Assembly: GCA_030017655.1 (NCBI GenBank)
Contig: JASEIM010000005.1
Coordinates: 32,063 to 56,062 of the forward strand
Source of the DNA: Methanobacterium sp.
GTDB lineage: Archaea > Methanobacteriota > Methanobacteria > Methanobacteriales > Methanobacteriaceae
Direction of reading: 5' to 3'
DNA: 24,000 nucleotides
The position numbers were made by a program, and so were the translations under genes. How positions within the stretch are numbered: the first letter of the stretch is position 1; each line of letters opens with the position of its first letter. Below, piece by piece: positions 681-8,511 of the stretch. The notes under the pieces were generated by a model. The model was given only the letters and a program-made list of their open reading frames with translations. It was not told the origin of the DNA and searched no databases.

Positions 681-1079
681 TTAAATGCAATAATCCATAA
701 ATTCTTCATTTCTTTTAGAACCCATGCATGCATTGCAGCCTGTAGGAACATTATCTTTTTCTTTATGCAATTGACAGATGATTTCTTCTGCTTTTATATT
801 TTTACATATGTCGCATACTTTTCGAATAATATCTCCTTGACCTAAGTCCTGCTCAATTAAATCTCTTGCAAGCAACCGGATCATACTTTGCGTATGAGCA
901 TCAAATTTAATTCCATGACCCCTCTTATCGCTTATATACTGTGATACTGCTGGTTGAGTGATATCTAGTAACTTTGAGATTTCTTTTTGTTTCATACCTA
1001 AATTAAGAAGTTCTTTTGCTAATTCTGATCTGATGGTTGGGATTACATACCATACAACTATTTCACATGGTGGTCTCAT
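681..1079 (-). CDS. Small HTH transcriptional regulator with a Cys-rich C-terminal (putative metal/Fe-S or redox-sensing) domain
   Basis: ATG at 1079. The helix-turn-helix segment 'QKEISKLLDITQPAVSQYISDKRG' is XRE/COG2522-like. The C-terminal half carries C89-x2-C92, C102 and C115-x2-C118, plus C5 and C131. It is convergent with cysS (3-nt gap) and lies downstream of cysK-cysE. A palindromic operator-like site sits in its own upstream region. Confidence 0.7.
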   Translation of the reverse strand: MRPPCEIVVWYVIPTIRSELAKELLNLGMKQKEISKLLDITQPAVSQYISDKRGHGIKFDAHTQSMIRLLARDLIEQDLGQGDIIRKVCDICKNIKAEEIICQLHKEKDNVPTGCNACMGSKRNEEFMDYCI

Positions 1080-1143
1080 TCTATCACACTTGATGATTCA
1101 TAATATTTAATTGTAAAAATTTACTGAAATTTATGAATTTGTA

Positions 1144-1161
1144 ATATAACTTATGTTATAT
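1144..1161. promoter_or_regulatory. Operator-like palindrome ATATAAC-TTAT-GTTATAT upstream of the regulator gene
   Basis: Perfect 7-bp inverted arms with a 4-bp spacer, read directly. Its centre is about 73 nt upstream of the ATG at 1079. The same 14 specified bases recur at 3068 and 8646. Confidence 0.5.
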
Positions 1162-1289
1162 AACTTTATATTATTTTGCTCAAATATCCATTGATTAAAT
1201 CAATTATATATAATTTATTTCATTAAAAAAATCTTTAAATAAACTTAATTAACAATTTAACACTTTTAAACCTCTAAAATTAATATCAA

Positions 1290-2003
1290 TTAAATGCCTG
1301 ATCCTTCTGAAAATATCTCTTCGATTTCTGATTTTTTTTCAAATAGTTCATTCATTTCAATTACTGATGTTGATACTCCTAAAGCTTGAATCTTTCTTTC
1401 CATTTCATCCTGGCGCTCTAAAATAATTTTAATAATTTCTGCAACAGGATCCGGTAACTCCCCATGATCTAAATCTATAGCGCATTTACGTTCCTCTTTC
1501 ACGTTTCTTCCAGGTATTCCAACAACTGTAGACCCCATTGGCGCTGATTTTAAGACTACTGAGCCTGCACCTATTTTTGAACAGTCCCCTATTGTAATAT
1601 TTCCTATTATTTTAGCTCCTGCACCAATTACAATACCATTACCAATAGTAGGGTGCCTTTTTTTCTTTTCTAAGCTTGTTCCACCCAAAACGACACCCTG
1701 ATAAATTAAAACATCGTTTCCAATTTCTGCAGTTTCTCCAATAACTACTCCCATTCCATGATCAATGAAAACTCTTCTCCCAATTTTTGCACCGGGATGT
1801 ATTTCTATTCCTGTAAAGAAGCGAGCTAGAGCCGAAATTAATCCTGCTGAAAGCCCATGATTACGAATCCATAAGCAGTGCGCTATTCTATAAAGCCAGA
1901 TAGCATGAAGTCCAGGATATGTTAGAAATATTTCTAATTTACTTCTTGCTGCTGGATCTCTTAGCATTACCATTTGTATGTCTTCTCTAACTCGATCAAA
2001 CAT
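1290..2003 (-). CDS. cysE: Serine O-acetyltransferase
   Basis: N-terminal SATase helical motif '[27 protein letters not shown]'. Left-handed beta-helix hexapeptide repeats ('[41 protein letters not shown]'). C-terminus ends in ...GSGI, and a terminal Ile is typical of SATs that dock into CysK. Lies 28 nt downstream of cysK on the same strand. Confidence 0.9.
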
Positions 2004-2031
2004 TTGCTCGCCCCAATTTACTATTTTTTAA

Positions 2032-3018
2032 TTAATTTGTAAACTCTTCGGTTGCATATTCGTTGAATGCCTTTTCAAATACCCATTCCATACTTAGGTA
2101 GCGCTCGCCTGTATCTGGAAGAATAACAACAATTCTTTTAACCTTATTTTCTTCTCTTTTCGCCACTTCAAGGGCTGCATAAACTGCAGCGCCTGATGAG
2201 ATACCTGCAAGAATTCCTTCTTCCCTTGCCAGTCTAACCATTGTATCTGCTGCATTTTCATCTTTTACCTTGATAATTTCATCTATTAAATCTATTTCCA
2301 GTACATCAGGTATAAATCCTGCACCTATTCCCTGTATTTTATGGGATCCTGGCTGTCCTCCAGACAGTACGGGTGATGCTTCTGGTTCTACAGCTATTGC
2401 CTTAAAATCAGGATTTTTTTCCTTCAGAACCTGTGCAACACCAGTTAAAGTCCCTCCGGTACCAATACCTGCAACCAAAATATCTACTTTACCGTCTGTA
2501 TCTCTCCATATCTCATTTGCAGTTGTTTGTCTATGTATTTTGGGGTTTGCCTTGTTTTTAAATTGCTGAGGCATTACTGCATTTGGTAATTTTTCCACAA
2601 GCTCTTCGGCCTTTGCAACTGCACCTTTCATTCCATTTGCACCAGGAGTTAAGACAATTTCTGCACCTAAAAGCGCGAGCAATTTTCTTCGTTCCATGGA
2701 CATCGTGTCAGGCATGGTGAGAACTAATCTGTAATCTTTAGCCGCTGCGACAAAAGCAAGAGCTATACCTGTATTTCCGCTTGTTGGCTCCACTAAAACT
2801 GTTTCTTTATTTATAAATCCTTCCTTTTCGCCTTGTTCAATCATCGCCACTCCAATTCTATCCTTTACACTGCTTAAAGGGTTGAATGATTCTAATTTTG
2901 CCAGAACTTCTGCCTGTGCACCTTCTGTAATTCTATTCAACCTTACCAGAGGAGTATTTCCTATAAGTTCTGTAGCATCGTTTGCTATTCCTCTTTTTAA
3001 TTCTGGTATTTTAACCAT
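2032..3018 (-). CDS. cysK: Cysteine synthase A / O-acetylserine sulfhydrylase (PLP-dependent)
   Basis: '[12 protein letters not shown]' and '[11 protein letters not shown]' (PLP-lysine motif SxKDR), '[12 protein letters not shown]', and the glycine loop '[10 protein letters not shown]'. RBS AAGGTGA lies 5-6 nt upstream of the ATG at 3018. Confidence 0.92.
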
Positions 3019-3067
3019 CTATTTCACCTTGTAATACTATATGTATTTTTAATATTGTTTTTATTGT

Positions 3068-3085
3068 ATATAACTATAGTTATAT
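3068..3085. promoter_or_regulatory. Operator-like palindrome ATATAAC-TATA-GTTATAT in the cysK promoter region
   Basis: Perfect copy. Its centre is about 58 nt upstream of the cysK ATG, where an archaeal TATA/BRE would be expected for a short leader. Confidence 0.5.
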
Positions 3086-3124
3086 AACATTGTTATAAGA
3101 CAAATTTTCTGAGAATGCTCAAAG

Positions 3125-3142
3125 ATATAACTATAGTTATGT
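3125..3142. promoter_or_regulatory. Second, one-mismatch copy of the palindrome (ATATAAC-TATA-GTTATGT)
   Basis: Read directly. Lies 57 bp from the first cysK site. Confidence 0.4.
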
Positions 3143-3167
3143 TTCTTTAATTTAATTTGGTATATAA

Positions 3168-3185
3168 AATTAACGATCGTTATAT
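3168..3185. promoter_or_regulatory. Third, degenerate copy (AATTAAC-GATC-GTTATAT)
   Basis: The right arm is perfect and the left arm has 2 mismatches. The core TAAC-GATC-GTTA is itself a perfect palindrome. Confidence 0.25.
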
Positions 3186-3195
3186 TAAATTAAAA

Positions 3196-3546
3196 TTAGA
3201 AAATATATTCTTTTTCTTTTTGAATTAATTCATATACCTTCTTTAAGGCGTCTTCTATTAACATTGGTATAATTACAGGCTGAATTCCGTGAGAAATAAG
3301 CATATCCGCAGCCCCCCGACCTATATCGCTCACCAGAACCCCATCACAATCTGAAATGAGATTTACAGCATCTTCCAGTAAAGAATCATGACTATCAATG
3401 GCACATGCTGGCTTGTTCTGTCGAGTTTCCAAATATTCGTAGCTCCCATCATCTTTAAGTTCAACTATCAAAAATTGCTGTGCCCTGCCAAAATGCTGAT
3501 TTACGAATTTTCCATCACTACTGGCTATTGCTATTTTATATGACAT
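3196..3546 (-). CDS. NifX/NifB-C-terminal-like protein (dinitrogenase FeMo-cofactor biosynthesis domain family, function unknown in methanogens)
   Basis: 'MSYKIAIASSDGKFVNQHFGRAQQFLIVEL...CDGVLVSDIGRGAADMLISHGIQPV' matches the characteristic pattern of this domain family ('KIAvaSsdG..vsqHFGra..F.iyd'). I prefer the ATG at 3546 because family members start at 'M.(K)IA'. The tracked ORF extends to 3591 with an uncharacteristic 15-aa leader. Confidence 0.75.
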   Translation of the reverse strand: MSYKIAIASSDGKFVNQHFGRAQQFLIVELKDDGSYEYLETRQNKPACAIDSHDSLLEDAVNLISDCDGVLVSDIGRGAADMLISHGIQPVIIPMLIEDALKKVYELIQKEKEYIF

Positions 3547-3607
3547 TTTAAGAATTCCCTTATTACAATAATATCTCCTGATCAATAACATATTTATTTA
3601 TTGGGCA

Positions 3608-4306
3608 TTAATCCCTAGTACTAAGCTCACCTCTATTATATAAACGCTGGAGTTCCGATGCATGTTTTAATTCATATTTCCATGTTGGAAGATTAAAAAA
3701 AGGGAATAAAGCCCCTTGCATAAAGTAATAATATGCTGCTATTCTACCATATTTTTTCCATGTTATATAATAATAAAGAGGAAAACCGCATCCCTGATTC
3801 ACTAGGGGACTTCCAGAACGTACTGTTCCATGATAAACCATTGGAATAGAGTTATTTTGCCCATTTTCCTTTGCAATGCCATAAACATAATTTAAAGCTT
3901 CATCGAGAGTATCAAACTCAATTCCGTCAGCCCTAAATCTCATTTTATCATCTGGAAGTCCAAATATAAACGCATTTATAACTTCTCTCCAATCTATAGG
4001 TACATCCGAGCCTTTTTTATCAATAAAGCCCAGTTGTATTATTGTTACATTTCCTTCCATATAATGGCTGTATTTCGAACTTCCCGCATAATGAAGCACT
4101 AATATACATTTAGACCCTCTTTCTTCCGCATATTGGGCTAAAAGTCTGGAATGCAGATGTCCCGGATACATATCAGGATCCTGAAACTTAACAAATGATA
4201 ATCTTCCAAAAGGTTCAATATCCCCTTCTGTGGCCAATGTATGTCCATATCCTCCAAAAAATAGAAATATTATTATTAATCCTGATAAAAGTTTCAAATG
4301 CTTCAT
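3608..4306 (-). CDS. Exported or membrane-anchored protein of unknown function (aromatic-rich)
   Basis: N-terminal hydrophobic signal/anchor 'LKLLSGLIIIFLFFGGYG'. The remainder is soluble and Tyr/Phe/Trp-rich ('FPLYYYITWKKYGRIAAYYYFMQGALFPFFNLPTWKY'). I recognise no family. Confidence 0.6.
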   Translation of the reverse strand: MKHLKLLSGLIIIFLFFGGYGHTLATEGDIEPFGRLSFVKFQDPDMYPGHLHSRLLAQYAEERGSKCILVLHYAGSSKYSHYMEGNVTIIQLGFIDKKGSDVPIDWREVINAFIFGLPDDKMRFRADGIEFDTLDEALNYVYGIAKENGQNNSIPMVYHGTVRSGSPLVNQGCGFPLYYYITWKKYGRIAAYYYFMQGALFPFFNLPTWKYELKHASELQRLYNRGELSTRD

Positions 4307-4574: not shown

Positions 4575-6950
4575 CTAAATGTCCTTAGAAGAAGCCTTAT
4601 ATAAAACAGGTTCAAGTTTATCAAGAGCCTTACTTACCTGCTTGTCGAATTCTACAAGTTTAGATGCCAATCCCCTAAAGTATGGGGCATAAACCTTATA
4701 ATACATTAATCTATCCGGATCTATACTATTTTTTAGAATTTCAGACCTGATTTCTCCCACTTTTTCTTGTATAGCAGGATACATTATATCATCAGGATAT
4801 TCACCTAAAAATATACCATCTGCACCATTTTCAAATGCATACAAAATATGTTTTGGCATTAAACGATTTATCGATGGTATTCTAATGATTCTAACTGATT
4901 CTGGATAGGATATTCTATTTATTCCAATATTATCGGCGGCCACATAACCAATATAATCTACAAAAGCAAGAATTCTTCTTTCACCATCTTTTTTGTCCTT
5001 TAGCATGCCTGAAATCATTGCAAATATTTGACTATCTGTTTGGCCCATTACTTCAACTGCTTCATTCTTACATTTTGAAATACATATTCCACAACCAGTG
5101 CAGGCAATAGGATCAACGGATATACGTTCATCATGCATATAAATAGCCTTATATTTACATGCTTTCACGCATTCGCCGCACATTTCACATTTATAATGAT
5201 CAACTACGGCGATTGTAGGTTCTATCTCTAATCCGCCATTCATTATCTCCGAAACTTTAGATGCAGCTGCATTTGCCTGAGACACACTATCTGTAATATC
5301 TTTTGGGCCCTGTGCAGTTCCACAAACATAAATTCCTTCAACATCAGTGGTTACCGGTTTTATCTTTGGATGTTTCTCTTTTACGAACAAATCTTCAGTA
5401 AGACCCACATTTAATTTCTCTGCAACTTTTAATGTTCCTTCCGATGGTTCCATTGCCTCTGATAAAACAACCATATCAGTTTCAATCTCTACTTGTTCAC
5501 CGCGAAGAGTGTCTTCAACTCTTACAACTAGATTATCACCGATCTTTGCTATATCTCCAGGACGCCCTCTTATCAGTTTAATTTCCTTAGATTGTACATG
5601 TCTGAAGTAATTTTCGTACATTCCAGGGGTTCTCATGTCTGTATAACAGATGATTATTTCAGTATCAGGATAATAGCGCCGGATAAAGTTTGCATGCTTT
5701 AACGCAACCATGCAGCAGACTTTTGAACAATATCTTTTTCCTTCAGGTTTTTCATCCCTGGAACCAGCACATTGAACCATTACCACTCTTCTTGGAATTT
5801 TACCATCTGATGGTTTGAGCAGTTTACCATTAGTAGGCCCATTAACGCCCATTATCCTTGCAAGCTCCATTTGAGTTATAACATCTTCATACCTTTCATA
5901 TCCATATTCTGGACGTTTTTTAAGGTCAAATCCTTTATGTCCTGTTGCTATAACTACTGATCCTACATTAAGAGGTATGATTTCACCTTTCATTTTAAGA
6001 TTAATAGCTCTCATTGTACAGACTTTCTGACATTTTCCACATTTAATACAATGTTTTTCATCAATCGTATAAACATCTGGAACTGATTGAGGAAATGGCT
6101 TATAAATCGCCTTTCTTAACATCAATTTTTCATTCCATTCATTAGGAACATCGACAGGACAAACTTCAGCACAGTTACCGCATGCTATACATTTATCTTC
6201 ATCAACAAAACTTGGTTTTCTTTCAACAAGCAAACTGAAGTTTCCAGCTTTTCTTTGGGAGGATTTAAGCTCTGCATTAGTGATTATAGTGATATTTTTA
6301 TGCTGGACGGCTTCATTTATCAGCGGATTAAAAAGACATAATGCACATTCTTCTGCAAGCTTTTCTGGGGAAAAAACCTTACCGATTTTTATCATGTTTC
6401 CCCCAACAGTTGGCTTTTCTTCAATTATGTGGACTTTAATACCCTGTTTTGCCAGTGAAAGCGCTGCAGTTATTCCAGATATTCCTCCACCAATTACAGC
6501 TGCGCTTTTTTTTGTTTTTCTAACTATTGCATCCAGAGGTCTGGCATACTGGACCCTTTCAATGGCCGCATTTGTAAGGGATATTGCCTTTTCTGTTGCC
6601 TTATCCACGTCTGAATGCACCCATGAACACTGTTCCCTTATATTTGCCATCTCAAGCAGATATGGATTTAAGGGGGCAACATGATTTCTAAAGGTTTTTT
6701 CGTGGGTAATTGGTGAACATGCTGCAATTACCACCCTATCTAATTCTTCCTCAAGTATAATGTCCCTTATATTCTTCTGACACTTTATAGAGCAAAGATT
6801 TTCAAATTCTTTCACCACTTTAGCATCTATTGAGGATTTAAGCCTCCCAATATCTACAGTGTCAGAAATGTTTCCCCCACATTTACATAGAAAAACTCCT
6901 ATATCAATGCTGCTTTTTGGAGCGTATCTTGAAAAATGACCGTTATTCAA
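4575..6950 (-). CDS. hdrA: Heterodisulfide reductase subunit A-like flavo-iron-sulfur protein fused to a C-terminal MvhD-like domain (HdrA2-type architecture)
   Basis: N-terminal HdrA cluster motif 'IGVFLCKCGGNIS...VVIAACSP...NIREQCSWVH'. FAD fold 'AAVIGGGISGITAALSLAKQG'. Inserted 2x[4Fe-4S] ferredoxin 'CIACGNCAEVCPV...CIKCGKCQKVC'. 'VQCAGSRD...YCSKVCCMVALKHA'. C-terminal ferredoxin 'CEMCGECVKAC...CTGCGICISKC'. Then the MvhD/FlpD-like 'ILAFVDYIGYVAADNIGINRISYPESVRIIRIPS...FENGADGIFLGEYPDD'. Start is TTG at 6950 with a GAGGT RBS 6 nt upstream. Confidence 0.85.
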   Translation of the reverse strand: MNNGHFSRYAPKSSIDIGVFLCKCGGNISDTVDIGRLKSSIDAKVVKEFENLCSIKCQKNIRDIILEEELDRVVIAACSPITHEKTFRNHVAPLNPYLLEMANIREQCSWVHSDVDKATEKAISLTNAAIERVQYARPLDAIVRKTKKSAAVIGGGISGITAALSLAKQGIKVHIIEEKPTVGGNMIKIGKVFSPEKLAEECALCLFNPLINEAVQHKNITIITNAELKSSQRKAGNFSLLVERKPSFVDEDKCIACGNCAEVCPVDVPNEWNEKLMLRKAIYKPFPQSVPDVYTIDEKHCIKCGKCQKVCTMRAINLKMKGEIIPLNVGSVVIATGHKGFDLKKRPEYGYERYEDVITQMELARIMGVNGPTNGKLLKPSDGKIPRRVVMVQCAGSRDEKPEGKRYCSKVCCMVALKHANFIRRYYPDTEIIICYTDMRTPGMYENYFRHVQSKEIKLIRGRPGDIAKIGDNLVVRVEDTLRGEQVEIETDMVVLSEAMEPSEGTLKVAEKLNVGLTEDLFVKEKHPKIKPVTTDVEGIYVCGTAQGPKDITDSVSQANAAASKVSEIMNGGLEIEPTIAVVDHYKCEMCGECVKACKYKAIYMHDERISVDPIACTGCGICISKCKNEAVEVMGQTDSQIFAMISGMLKDKKDGERRILAFVDYIGYVAADNIGINRISYPESVRIIRIPSINRLMPKHILYAFENGADGIFLGEYPDDIMYPAIQEKVGEIRSEILKNSIDPDRLMYYKVYAPYFRGLASKLVEFDKQVSKALDKLEPVLYKASSKDI

Positions 6951-6959
6951 TTTTATACC

Positions 6960-7907
6960 TCATAAACATGGATTAATCTGCTTTATTTCCTTTAAAATTC
7001 GTTCTACAGGAACTGTATGTGTTTGAACTCCTACAACAGTGTAAGGGTCAGCTCCAAGTGCAAGAGCCAAAAATTGAGAAATATTAAGGCATATAATATT
7101 AAATTCTACACCTAATGATTTTCCAATTACTTTTTGATTTCTGTCAAACTGCAGCTGGCAGTTAGGACACATTAGAAGAAGAATATCAACCTCATTCTCC
7201 TTTAAACTTAAAAGTTTTTCGGCAGTTATAGAAAATGATAACTCTTTATTCATATAACGCTGCCTGAAACCGTTACCACACGTACTGGTTTTACGATCAT
7301 ACCAGTCTACGGTTTCCACGCCACATGCTTTAGCAAGAGTTTCTAAAACCATTGGATCTCTTTCATTTCCAATTGTATCTTTTTGATGAACTTTACAGTA
7401 GTGACATGCATGATGTGCAGCCACTTTAAAGCTAGATAAATCTACTTCCACAAGATCCTGAATTTCATCTACCTTTTTATAAAGAATTTCAGTTGTATGG
7501 AATATATTATCCCTTGAATCTATATTTTCCAAATTATATTTTAAATCAGAAAGCCCTGAATCTTCAAATATTTTGTTTACGCTATTTCTAATATGATCCT
7601 TTTTATTGAGGATATTTGCTGATTTTTTTAGTATTGCATAACAGGTAGCGCACAATGTAGCAATATTTTCATGTCCTTCTTCTCTTGCAATTCCAAAATT
7701 TCTTGCTGATAGTGCAGTGGTTGAAAATTGGTCAAAAAGATCGGCATAATGCCCTAAACCAGTACAGCATGATTGTCTTTCGCTTATACTATATTCAATT
7801 CCCAGTTTATCAAATAGAAACTTTGTTGAGGATTCTACACCCGGATACTCAACATTTACAAGACAGCTTTTGAAGAGTAAAATCTTTTTATCTGGTATTT
7901 TCTTCAT
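6960..7907 (-). CDS. hdrB: Heterodisulfide reductase subunit B-like protein (two CCG domains, the second non-canonical)
   Basis: The N-terminal CCG motif is complete: C15-x31-C47C48-x37-C86-x2-C89. The C-terminal motif reads C171-x37-T209-C210-x36-C247-x2-C250, with an extra C168. It overlaps the hdrC stop by 20 nt and ends 9 nt before the hdrA start. Confidence 0.8.
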   Translation of the reverse strand: MKKIPDKKILLFKSCLVNVEYPGVESSTKFLFDKLGIEYSISERQSCCTGLGHYADLFDQFSTTALSARNFGIAREEGHENIATLCATCYAILKKSANILNKKDHIRNSVNKIFEDSGLSDLKYNLENIDSRDNIFHTTEILYKKVDEIQDLVEVDLSSFKVAAHHACHYCKVHQKDTIGNERDPMVLETLAKACGVETVDWYDRKTSTCGNGFRQRYMNKELSFSITAEKLLSLKENEVDILLLMCPNCQLQFDRNQKVIGKSLGVEFNIICLNISQFLALALGADPYTVVGVQTHTVPVERILKEIKQINPCL

Positions 7908-8511
7908 TTTTACATCGCCTTACCCTTTCTAGTCTTTTAGTAAACCCTGTCTTCTCCAAAATTTTGTTGATGTCACTTACATCTTTTTCTGCTAATAACA
8001 GGGATCCAAGACCCAGTTTTTCCCTTATATTATCCAGGTTAACCTTTAATTCAAGCCATTCCTTTCCATAATCCTTCAATAGATCCTCAGAAAAGTCATC
8101 AGGAATTGTTCCAAGTCCAAATTCAAGGAAATAATCACCATATGCCGAAAAAGGGGCTATTTTAGGTTTTCCTCTTCCATGGTCAATTGCTTTTTGTCTT
8201 AAAATTTGATTTAATTCACATGGACTGTTATTTACCGGGCATACGCTGTGACAGGTGTAACAGTAAAAACAATTCCAGATTATATCATCTGTAATTAAAT
8301 TTTCATCTTTATCCAGTACTCTTTTAACTATTTCTCTTGGATCGTAGTCTGTGTGTCTTGCTGCTGGACATACTGATGTACACATTCCACACTGAATACA
8401 TTTAAGAAGTCCGAGATTTTCTGACGCTTTTAAGTCTTTAATAATGCTTTCTACAAGTTCAAAGGTATTTTCACCTATTTTAAGAGTATTCATCTCTATT
8501 TTACCTCGCAT
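7888..8511 (-). CDS. hdrC: Heterodisulfide reductase subunit C-like 2x[4Fe-4S] ferredoxin
   Basis: 'CIQCGMCTSVCPAA' and 'CFYCYTCHSVCPV' cluster motifs in an HdrC-sized protein directly upstream of hdrB. An alternative start at the second ATG (8493, 'MNTLKIG') has a GAGGT RBS 9 nt upstream and may be the true start. Confidence 0.8.
   Translation of the reverse strand: MRGKIEMNTLKIGENTFELVESIIKDLKASENLGLLKCIQCGMCTSVCPAARHTDYDPREIVKRVLDKDENLITDDIIWNCFYCYTCHSVCPVNNSPCELNQILRQKAIDHGRGKPKIAPFSAYGDYFLEFGLGTIPDDFSEDLLKDYGKEWLELKVNLDNIREKLGLGSLLLAEKDVSDINKILEKTGFTKRLERVRRCKNEENTR

Follow-up and report, generated by a model that had tools for sequence, protein, structure and literature searches.

In solved Mvh-, Fdh- and Elp-dependent heterodisulfide reductase (Hdr) complexes, the [2Fe-2S] cluster of MvhD or ElpC is the last centre ahead of the bifurcating FAD (flavin adenine dinucleotide) of the partner protomer, and it moves together with HdrA's N- and C-terminal domains as a mobile arm (PMC12350162, PMC13580544). 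A conserved pair of HdrA cysteines lies between the MvhD cluster and this FAD; the pair and Asp71 of MvhD contact an unidentified ligand, with His68 also near (PMC13580544). At the bifurcating FAD, Glu356 of M. thermolithotrophicus HdrA is described as placing Lys409 at N5 (PMC12054007). An MvhD-like domain can also be part of HdrA, as in the "type Ia" class that includes M. acetivorans HdrA2 (PMC12054007), for which Fe2S2 was counted in the purified protein (PMC5296606). Here, we analyzed a 24,000-nucleotide (nt) stretch of a Methanobacterium sp. contig (JASEIM010000005.1, positions 32,063 to 56,062 of the forward strand; "the window" below is this whole stretch) that encodes an HdrA paralogue ending in an MvhD-like domain without a single cysteine.

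On the electron route to the bifurcating HdrA flavin, itself an open mechanistic question, the last relay is accepted to be the [2Fe-2S] cluster of MvhD. An HdrA class that is large and conserved, has the MvhD fold minus its cluster, and differs at a flavin-site residue and in an HdrB cluster motif as well is a natural experiment on an Hdr without that relay. The protein family is already known and named. An MvhD domain in the cysteine-less state is described nowhere in the open-access literature searched, and the main text of the M. ruminantium genome paper gives no Hdr detail.

A fused MvhD domain without cluster ligands

Open reading frame (ORF) calls, together with Pfam, NCBIfam, and PDB sequence searches, identified a minus-strand operon hdrC-hdrB-hdrA made up of three overlapping or adjacent ORFs in the window. 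The genes and the segments of the fused domain are as follows (aa, amino acids).

7888..8511, minus strand: hdrC paralogue, first gene of the operon, 207 aa; Pfam Fer4_8; aligns to HdrC 5odc_C
6960..7907, minus strand: hdrB paralogue, 315 aa, two CCG domains; Pfam CCG; aligns to HdrB 8rvu_b, E=8e-49
4575..6950, minus strand: hdrA paralogue, 791 aa, to which the MvhD-like domain is fused; start codon TTG, stop codon 4575-4577
4995..6902, minus strand: HdrA core, aa 17-652; alignment to 5odc_A, E=2.7e-166
4629..4973, minus strand: Cys-less domain of FlpD/MvhD fold, aa 660-774; PF02662, PDB alignments, and AlphaFold2 (AF2) model
4578..4628, minus strand: C-terminal tail, aa 775-791, the lower-confidence end of the last helix in the model
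4944..4964, minus strand: FVDYIGY, aa 663-669, replacing FCCNWC(S/T)Y
4863..4874, minus strand: SINR, aa 693-696, replacing CSGR
4779..4805, minus strand: GEYPDDIMY, aa 716-724, replacing GCHxGDCHY

The minus-strand segment 4578-4985 is exactly the last 136 codons of hdrA (translation GERRILAFVDYIGYV...SSKDI), and the residues it encodes, 656-791, are a genuine FlpD/MvhD domain. Positions 1-121 of the 123 in the PF02662 (FlpD) profile align to aa 660-774 (E=5.4e-23; 81.8 bits vs. a gathering cutoff of 22.3). In a phmmer search of PDB sequences, the domain aligned to MvhD 5odc_D (1.9e-10), VhuD 9sfi_K, ElpC 8rvu_F, and MvhD 9sw2_D and 7bkb_F. When the last 156 residues were modelled by AF2 with 46 homologues, the mean predicted local distance difference test score (pLDDT) was 91.7, and a Foldseek search of the PDB at E<1e-3 returned MvhD (5ODH, 5ODC, and 7BKB) and ElpC (8RVU) as its sole matches, with target-normalized template-modelling (TM) scores of 0.79-0.83 and a root-mean-square deviation of ~2 Å. 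The homology to MvhD that the first-pass annotation had proposed by eye is thus borne out by the profile match, the PDB alignments, and the fold comparison.

The same domain has no cysteine in residues 656-791, as opposed to 30 in residues 1-655, and at the Cys frequency of the HdrA core the probability of finding none in 136 aa is 0.0017. Aligned to 9sw2_D and numbered as in M. marburgensis MvhD, the ligand columns read C12 to F663, C13 to V664, C16 to I667, C42 to S693, C67 to E717, and C72 to I722; His68 is replaced by Tyr718, and Asp71 is kept as D721. Where functional MvhD has its ligand set (CCxxC, the C in CSG, GC, and DC), the window domain therefore presents F/V, I, S, E, and I. Misalignment was considered as a way of hiding cysteines and is impossible, as the domain has none. 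The earlier claim that all the cluster-ligand cysteines had been replaced was correct by both the PF02662/9sw2_D alignment and the Cys count, and the by-eye pairing of CSGR with SINR and of GCHxGDCHY with GEYPDDIMY also stood. Its pairing of CNWC was shifted by about one residue: HMMER and MAFFT place the first motif as (C)CNWC to (V)-DYI or VD-YI, which leaves the conclusion of Cys loss unaffected. Judged from these columns, the fused domain cannot relay electrons via a [2Fe-2S] cluster, because every cluster ligand has been lost.

Conservation of the domain and its wider subfamily

The best 120 homologues of the protein were all HdrA+FlpD fusions of 767-801 aa or fragments thereof, with identity down to 58%, and came from Methanobacterium, Methanobrevibacter, and unclassified Methanobacteriaceae. 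All 120 shared the pattern FLDxxGY ... SxNR ... GEYPxD, with ligand columns free of Cys. Within a 46-sequence alignment, 17 domain positions were invariant, among them Asp665, Ser693, and Pro719, which take the place of ligands or adjoin them, and Glu717 was conserved in at least 90%. Against the M. oryzae orthologue, the domain had a dN/dS of 0.081 and the HdrA core one of 0.047; this was the only pair used, more distant ones being saturated at synonymous sites. The fused Cys-less domain is under purifying selection. Recent pseudogenization was also considered, and is ruled out by dN/dS and by conservation across genera.

Beyond this family, an exhaustive HMMER search with the domain against 1.84 billion representative proteins gave 517 matches at E<1e-3, and a domain-only search of a 5.8-billion-protein index added little, returning 15 fragments only. 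Among the best 150 of the 517 representatives, 41 had no Cys at any ligand column and 87 were canonical, with Cys at the three core ligand columns in 87/87, 83/87, and 87/87. At or beside the former ligand positions, the 41 Cys-less sequences carried D/E (31/41), S/T (41/41), and E/D (38/41). A neighbour-joining (NJ) tree made after masking the ligand columns put 32 of the 35 Cys-less domains of full length in one bipartition, whose remaining members were three near-Cys-less sequences only. Cys-less FlpD domains thus form an old, roughly monophyletic subfamily. Nearly all of them sit C-terminally on HdrA-like proteins, including an HdrA/GltD-type protein of 1229 aa. Named sources are Baldrarchaeia/Odinarchaeota, Methanoperedenaceae, Syntrophoarchaeum, and Caldisericota, as well as Methanosarcina; the subfamily reaches across several archaeal phyla and into bacteria. 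The possibility that the Cys-less relatives are QmoB-type proteins was discarded, as NCBIfam scans show HdrA-like fusions or fragments of those.

As far as its sequences can tell, the FlpD family shows graded ligand loss. One intermediate class, "FADDxCTY ... PS ... E/D," retains the Cys16 equivalent alone (P0145, P0150, P0166, P0189, P0191, and P0210 cover the intermediate classes). A further class, "ACEWSAY," has CxxS.

Further changes in HdrA and HdrB

The HdrA core itself is complete, with the N-terminal cluster domain, the FAD/thioredoxin-reductase domain, the inserted and C-terminal ferredoxin domains, and all [4Fe-4S] Cys motifs. Five sites in HdrA and HdrB bear on the flavin and on the second non-cubane cluster.

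6336..6347, minus strand: HdrA Cys202-Ala-Leu-Cys205, the conserved Cys pair (Cys197/CxxC pair of HdrA as in 5ODC), retained (5odc_A alignment)
5697-5699, minus strand: HdrA K418, the Lys409 equivalent, retained
5859..5861, minus strand: HdrA Ala364, at the Glu356 position (M. thermolithotrophicus numbering)
7278..7283, minus strand: HdrB Thr209-Cys210, TC in place of CC in the second CCG motif
7395..7406, minus strand: HdrB Cys168-His-Tyr-Cys171; the canonical form is CHFL

At the Glu356 position, 119/119 fusion paralogues had A, G, or S, and 120/120 canonical HdrA had E. In a 17-sequence core panel, this position was Ala or Gly in all 10 members of the window's core clade and Glu in both HdrA2-type proteins. 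This change suggests a flavin chemistry that differs from classical bifurcation. Across most of the wider clade, we also observed that loss of Glu356 co-varies with the Cys-less domain. One Cys-less protein from Baldrarchaeota, which the core tree places on its canonical side, keeps Glu at this position.

In the window HdrB, the first CCG motif is complete (C15, C47, C48, C86, and C89). The second CX(n)CCX(n)CXXC motif is incomplete, leaving one complete motif where the two-motif definition has two, and the protein still passes NF041780. TCG was found in 7/7 partner HdrBs, including the Methanosarcina-type protein of locus L006, whereas canonical M. marburgensis HdrB has CCG. C171 is an extra Cys three residues after the first ligand; it is present in six Methanobacteriaceae copies, while the Methanosarcina-type copy reads CHYY. 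C171 may stand in as a ligand of the second non-cubane cluster.

A second Hdr in Methanobacteriaceae

The window HdrA scored 1436.1 over aa 16-774 against the NCBIfam equivalog model NF041891, hdrA_Methbact (cutoff 1300), HdrB scored 525.8 against NF041780 (cutoff 450), and HdrC scored 306 against NF041890, hdrC_Methbact (cutoff 270). All three models are named ferredoxin:CoB-CoM heterodisulfide reductase (CoB and CoM, coenzymes B and M), and the family to which the window gene belongs, as an ordinary member, already has an NCBI name.

Using M. marburgensis HdrA, reconstructed from a PDB alignment, as the query, we found canonical HdrA proteins of ~658 aa without PF02662, 83-86% identical to the query, in Methanobacterium (M. 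subterraneum and M. petrolearium) and Methanobrevibacter (M. arboriphilus, M. filiformis, and M. curvatus). The window HdrA core is only 41-44% identical to the canonical HdrA of the same family, and M. filiformis carries both a fusion and a canonical HdrA (P0117 and P0372). In M. cuticularis (L004 616-4664), a complete, canonical mvhDGAB operon divergently adjoins the hdrB-hdrA fusion genes and includes a stand-alone FlpD protein of 142 aa. This species therefore encodes a cluster-bearing stand-alone MvhD next to a fused copy that has no cluster. The window hdrA is a paralogue: canonical HdrA and stand-alone mvhD coexist with it in the same genera and genomes.

A review describes a second contiguous hdr operon, HdrA2B2C2 (Msp_0125-0127), in Methanosphaera stadtmanae (PMC7374477). 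Like the window operon, it comprises three contiguous hdr genes in the same family, and it sits beside a canonical split hdrA/hdrBC set and mvhDGA (PMC7374477). By annotation and operon layout, Msp_0125-0127 is most likely orthologous to the window operon. The searchable papers do not mention a Cys-less domain or a function for M. stadtmanae HdrA2B2C2. The initial description of the fusion as unusual for this lineage does not hold, given that all 120 best homologues are like fusions, that the model NF041891 exists, and that the second hdr operon of M. stadtmanae is annotated.

Genomic setting

The closest homologues of the window HdrA are Methanobacterium proteins, with that of M. oryzae 92% identical. 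Around the operon lie hemA, methanogenesis marker 9, the methyl-coenzyme M reductase A2 component, cofD/cofE, cysK/cysE, and cysS, a gene set that fits a Methanobacterium chromosome. The hdrB and hdrC reading frames overlap by 20 nt, and both 4Fe-4S motifs of the HdrC paralogue are kept. The order hdrC-hdrB-hdrA was kept in 7/7 loci of relatives, with hdrC not called in L004.

Several sulfur or cysteine genes lie in the window, namely cysS (12-677), a Cys-rich helix-turn-helix (HTH) regulator (681-1079), cysE (1290-2003), and cysK (2032-3018); a NifX/NifB-C-like protein at 3196-3591 belongs to the same neighbourhood. Immediately downstream of hdrA, a minus-strand ORF of 232 aa (3608-4306) with a hydrophobic segment at its N-terminus had no Pfam or NCBIfam match. 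Compared with the M. oryzae locus, synteny is broken downstream of hdrA (681-4306 vs. L007 11377-13650): M. oryzae has two small ORFs and sensor kinases where the window has the 232-aa protein, the NifX-like gene, cysK, and cysE. On the upstream side, the two loci remain syntenic through a K+ channel gene, hemA, a sirohaem synthase-like gene, marker 9, atwA, and cofD.

Proposed electron input and alternative readings

We propose that the operon encodes a second Hdr in which the fused domain is a cluster-less structural stand-in for MvhD, and that this enzyme is independent of Mvh, Fdh, and Elp and fed by ferredoxin or hydride; we put the probability of this reading at roughly 0.6. The fused domain would be built into the mobile arm directly after the C-terminal ferredoxin domain, and would occupy the MvhD docking site in cis, blocking free MvhD. 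The usual last relay, from donor through the MvhD [2Fe-2S] cluster to the FAD of the partner protomer, would be absent, and the Hdr would be uncoupled from Mvh, Fdh, and Elp, because the domain has no cluster and the docking site would be filled in cis. The likeliest input would be reduced ferredoxin through the clusters of the ferredoxin domains, or hydride transferred directly to FAD, with output via HdrC and HdrB to CoM-S-S-CoB or a related disulfide, possibly without classical bifurcation. A ferredoxin-type role has been proposed for the M. acetivorans HdrA1B1C1 counterpart (PMC6019823), and the NCBI name implies the same. The first-pass suggestion of a structural or docking role with a different electron input remains the most reasonable one, given the homology and the ligand loss.

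Several points weigh against this proposal. The searchable literature yielded no biochemical reports on ferredoxin:CoM-S-S-CoB activity of the enzyme from Methanobacteriaceae, and the NCBI name for this enzyme is by analogy only. That the domain would occupy the MvhD site is read only from its direct fusion after the C-terminal ferredoxin domain and from the identity of fold. The conserved D/E, S/T, and E/D set, along with the Asp71 equivalent, could mean that the former cluster site binds something. The M. cuticularis operon adjoining mvhDGAB could hint at a remaining functional link to hydrogenase, and the altered HdrB motif leaves the substrate uncertain.

Some of these points lead to readings of their own. 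If the domain were a cluster-less docking adaptor, it would still recruit MvhAG, FdhAB, or ElpAB, and electrons would bypass the missing [2Fe-2S] cluster, passing directly towards the flavin from the distal cluster of the donor or the N-terminal clusters of HdrA. The mvhDGAB genes next to the M. cuticularis fusion, the fold and many surface motifs held in common with MvhD (GADG, RxxYP, and IIR/K), and the retained N-terminal cluster domain of HdrA fit such an adaptor. However, the [2Fe-2S] cluster is the last relay and already lies 22-25 Å from FAD (PMC12350162, PMC13580544), so its removal should break the chain. Adjacency to mvh was also seen in only 1/8 loci, and the co-varying Glu change at the flavin site suggests a different flavin chemistry; we consider an adaptor rather unlikely. 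A rebuilt site is also conceivable, in which Asp665, Ser693, and Glu717 together with Asp721 bind, for example, a mononuclear metal or the ligand seen between the HdrA Cys pair and MvhD, for electron or proton transfer or for flavin gating. The replacement residues are conserved (D665 and S693 invariantly, E717 in at least 90%), the wider subfamily follows the same pattern in the counts given above, and both the Asp71 equivalent and the HdrA CxxC pair implicated in ligand contact (PMC13580544) are retained. Yet polar filling of an emptied cluster cavity is expected on purely structural grounds, and the His68 equivalent has become Tyr. No redox cofactor is known to use such a ligand set in an MvhD fold, and we regard this reading as quite improbable. 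Beyond the earlier view of the domain as a relic, it could be read as a non-functional leftover drifting after fusion and heading for loss. All cofactor ligands are indeed gone, and a Syntrophoarchaeum protein (P0154, 685 aa) has a shortened version. Still, this reading, like the relic label, is clearly contradicted by the conservation data: dN/dS is 0.08, 17 positions are invariant across 46 sequences, the replacement residues are themselves conserved, the AF2 pLDDT is 91.7, the domain is full length in all full-length homologues among the best 120, from two genera, and the old, roughly monophyletic Cys-less subfamily extends across several archaeal phyla and bacteria. We therefore see next to no chance that it is right.

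Another alternative concerns the substrate as well as the donor, both of which would have changed: HdrC'B'A' would not be primarily a CoM-S-S-CoB reductase, and its target would instead be a different disulfide or persulfide from the metabolism of sulfur, cysteine, or coenzyme M. Gene neighbourhoods favour it, with cysS directly upstream of hdrC in L001, L003, L005, and L008, ThiF-like and GMC-like genes in L003 and L008, a ThiS/Urm1-like gene in L008, NifS and NifU in L001, ComA, HcyBio, and ComDE around the operon in L002, and cysK, cysE, cysS, and the Cys-rich HTH regulator downstream in the window. The TCG in the second CCG motif of all HdrB partners points the same way. Against this, the neighbourhood could be inherited synteny with no bearing on function and is absent in L004 and, downstream of hdrA, in the closest relative, L007; HdrB passes the NCBI equivalog model for heterodisulfide reductase B; and the M. 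acetivorans counterpart affects methanogenic growth (PMC6019823). A change of substrate is thus an unlikely though not negligible explanation. More speculatively, and with only a slim chance of being correct as a whole, the Cys-less domain, the Glu356 change to Ala/Gly, and HdrB TCG could together define a mechanistically distinct, ancient Hdr class whose pocket has turned into a carboxylate/hydroxyl ligand site and whose flavin is fed, unlike in any solved Hdr complex, by direct hydride or by ferredoxin only, without bifurcation. Besides the Methanobacteriaceae "Hdr2," this class would take in the Methanosarcina A-C-B operon type, Methanoperedenaceae, Syntrophoarchaeum, and others. In Methanobacteriaceae it would perhaps serve sulfur, cysteine, or CoM metabolism in place of the methanogenic heterodisulfide cycle, a role hinted at by the recurrent cysS, cysK/cysE, ThiF/ThiS, and ComA/ComDE neighbourhood.

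The three sequence markers separate this Hdr class from the bifurcating Mvh-, Fdh-, and Elp-dependent Hdr when genomes are annotated and when the metabolism of rumen and gut Methanobrevibacter and Methanobacterium is modelled.

Comparison with known systems

The window domain is like MvhD, VhuD, and ElpC (5ODC, 7BKB, 8RVU, and 9SW2) in fold, in its PF02662 match, in the motifs GADG, RxxYP, and RIIR, and in Asp71. Unlike them, it has no Cys and no [2Fe-2S] cluster, and has Tyr in place of His68. MvhD is a separate subunit from the mvh, fdh, or elp operon, whereas the window domain is covalently fused to HdrA. The fusion is to the C-terminal ferredoxin domain, the part that MvhD accompanies in the mobile arm.

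M. acetivorans HdrA2 (MA2868; NF040770), the HdrA-MvhD fusion that has been characterised, is similar in architecture, with an HdrA core followed by a C-terminal FlpD domain in ~790 aa. However, the HdrA2 type retains the Cys motif that the window domain lacks; a Cys-bearing representative of 794 aa (P0192) scored 157 bits against PF02662 vs. 82 for the window domain. The window HdrA failed the NF040770 HdrA2 model (776.2 vs. a cutoff of 1100). An NJ tree of 629 HdrA core columns placed it with Methanoperedenaceae, Syntrophoarchaeum, and NF041778-type proteins, apart from both the HdrA2 type and canonical HdrA. The core of HdrA2 sits with canonical HdrA and retains Glu356, while the window HdrA groups elsewhere and has Ala there. 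The "HdrA2-type" label of the first-pass annotation thus captured the architecture and not the affiliation. This class corrects the published statement that assigns a [2Fe-2S] cluster to fused MvhD domains ("type Ia" HdrA).

The Methanosarcina hdrA-hdrC-hdrB type is represented by P0262 (805 aa), a Cys-less protein that passes NF041778 (1492 vs. a cutoff of 1400) and sits in an hdrA-hdrC-hdrB operon, with relatives 82-88% identical over the full length in Methanosarcina/Methanosarcinaceae genomes. In these genomes (L006 5001-9023 and L009-L013), we observed hdrA-hdrC-hdrB operons whose 805-aa HdrA ends in a more degenerate Cys-less FlpD (50.7 bits). From operon order and the NCBI name, we infer that the P0262-type operon is HdrA1C1B1 of M. 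acetivorans in the nomenclature of Buan and Metcalf. According to a 2018 review (PMC6019823), HdrA1B1C1 has no MvhD extension; if the assignment is right, the statement that the Methanosarcina HdrA1 type is without an MvhD-like extension is corrected as well.

The window system and the Methanosarcina type have in common the Cys-less C-terminal FlpD, Ala at the Glu356 position, HdrB TCG, the NF041780 HdrB equivalog, and the same side of the core tree. By contrast, their HdrA cores are only ~46% identical, and the window HdrA failed NF041778 (851.7 vs. a cutoff of 1400). Gene order is A-C-B in the Methanosarcina type vs. C-B-A in the window, and the Methanosarcina-type domain is more degenerate, with GASS for GADG and Thr for Ser. 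The extra HdrB Cys (CHYC) is a Methanobacteriaceae feature not found in the Methanosarcina type, and the window host, unlike that type, is a hydrogenotroph without cytochromes.

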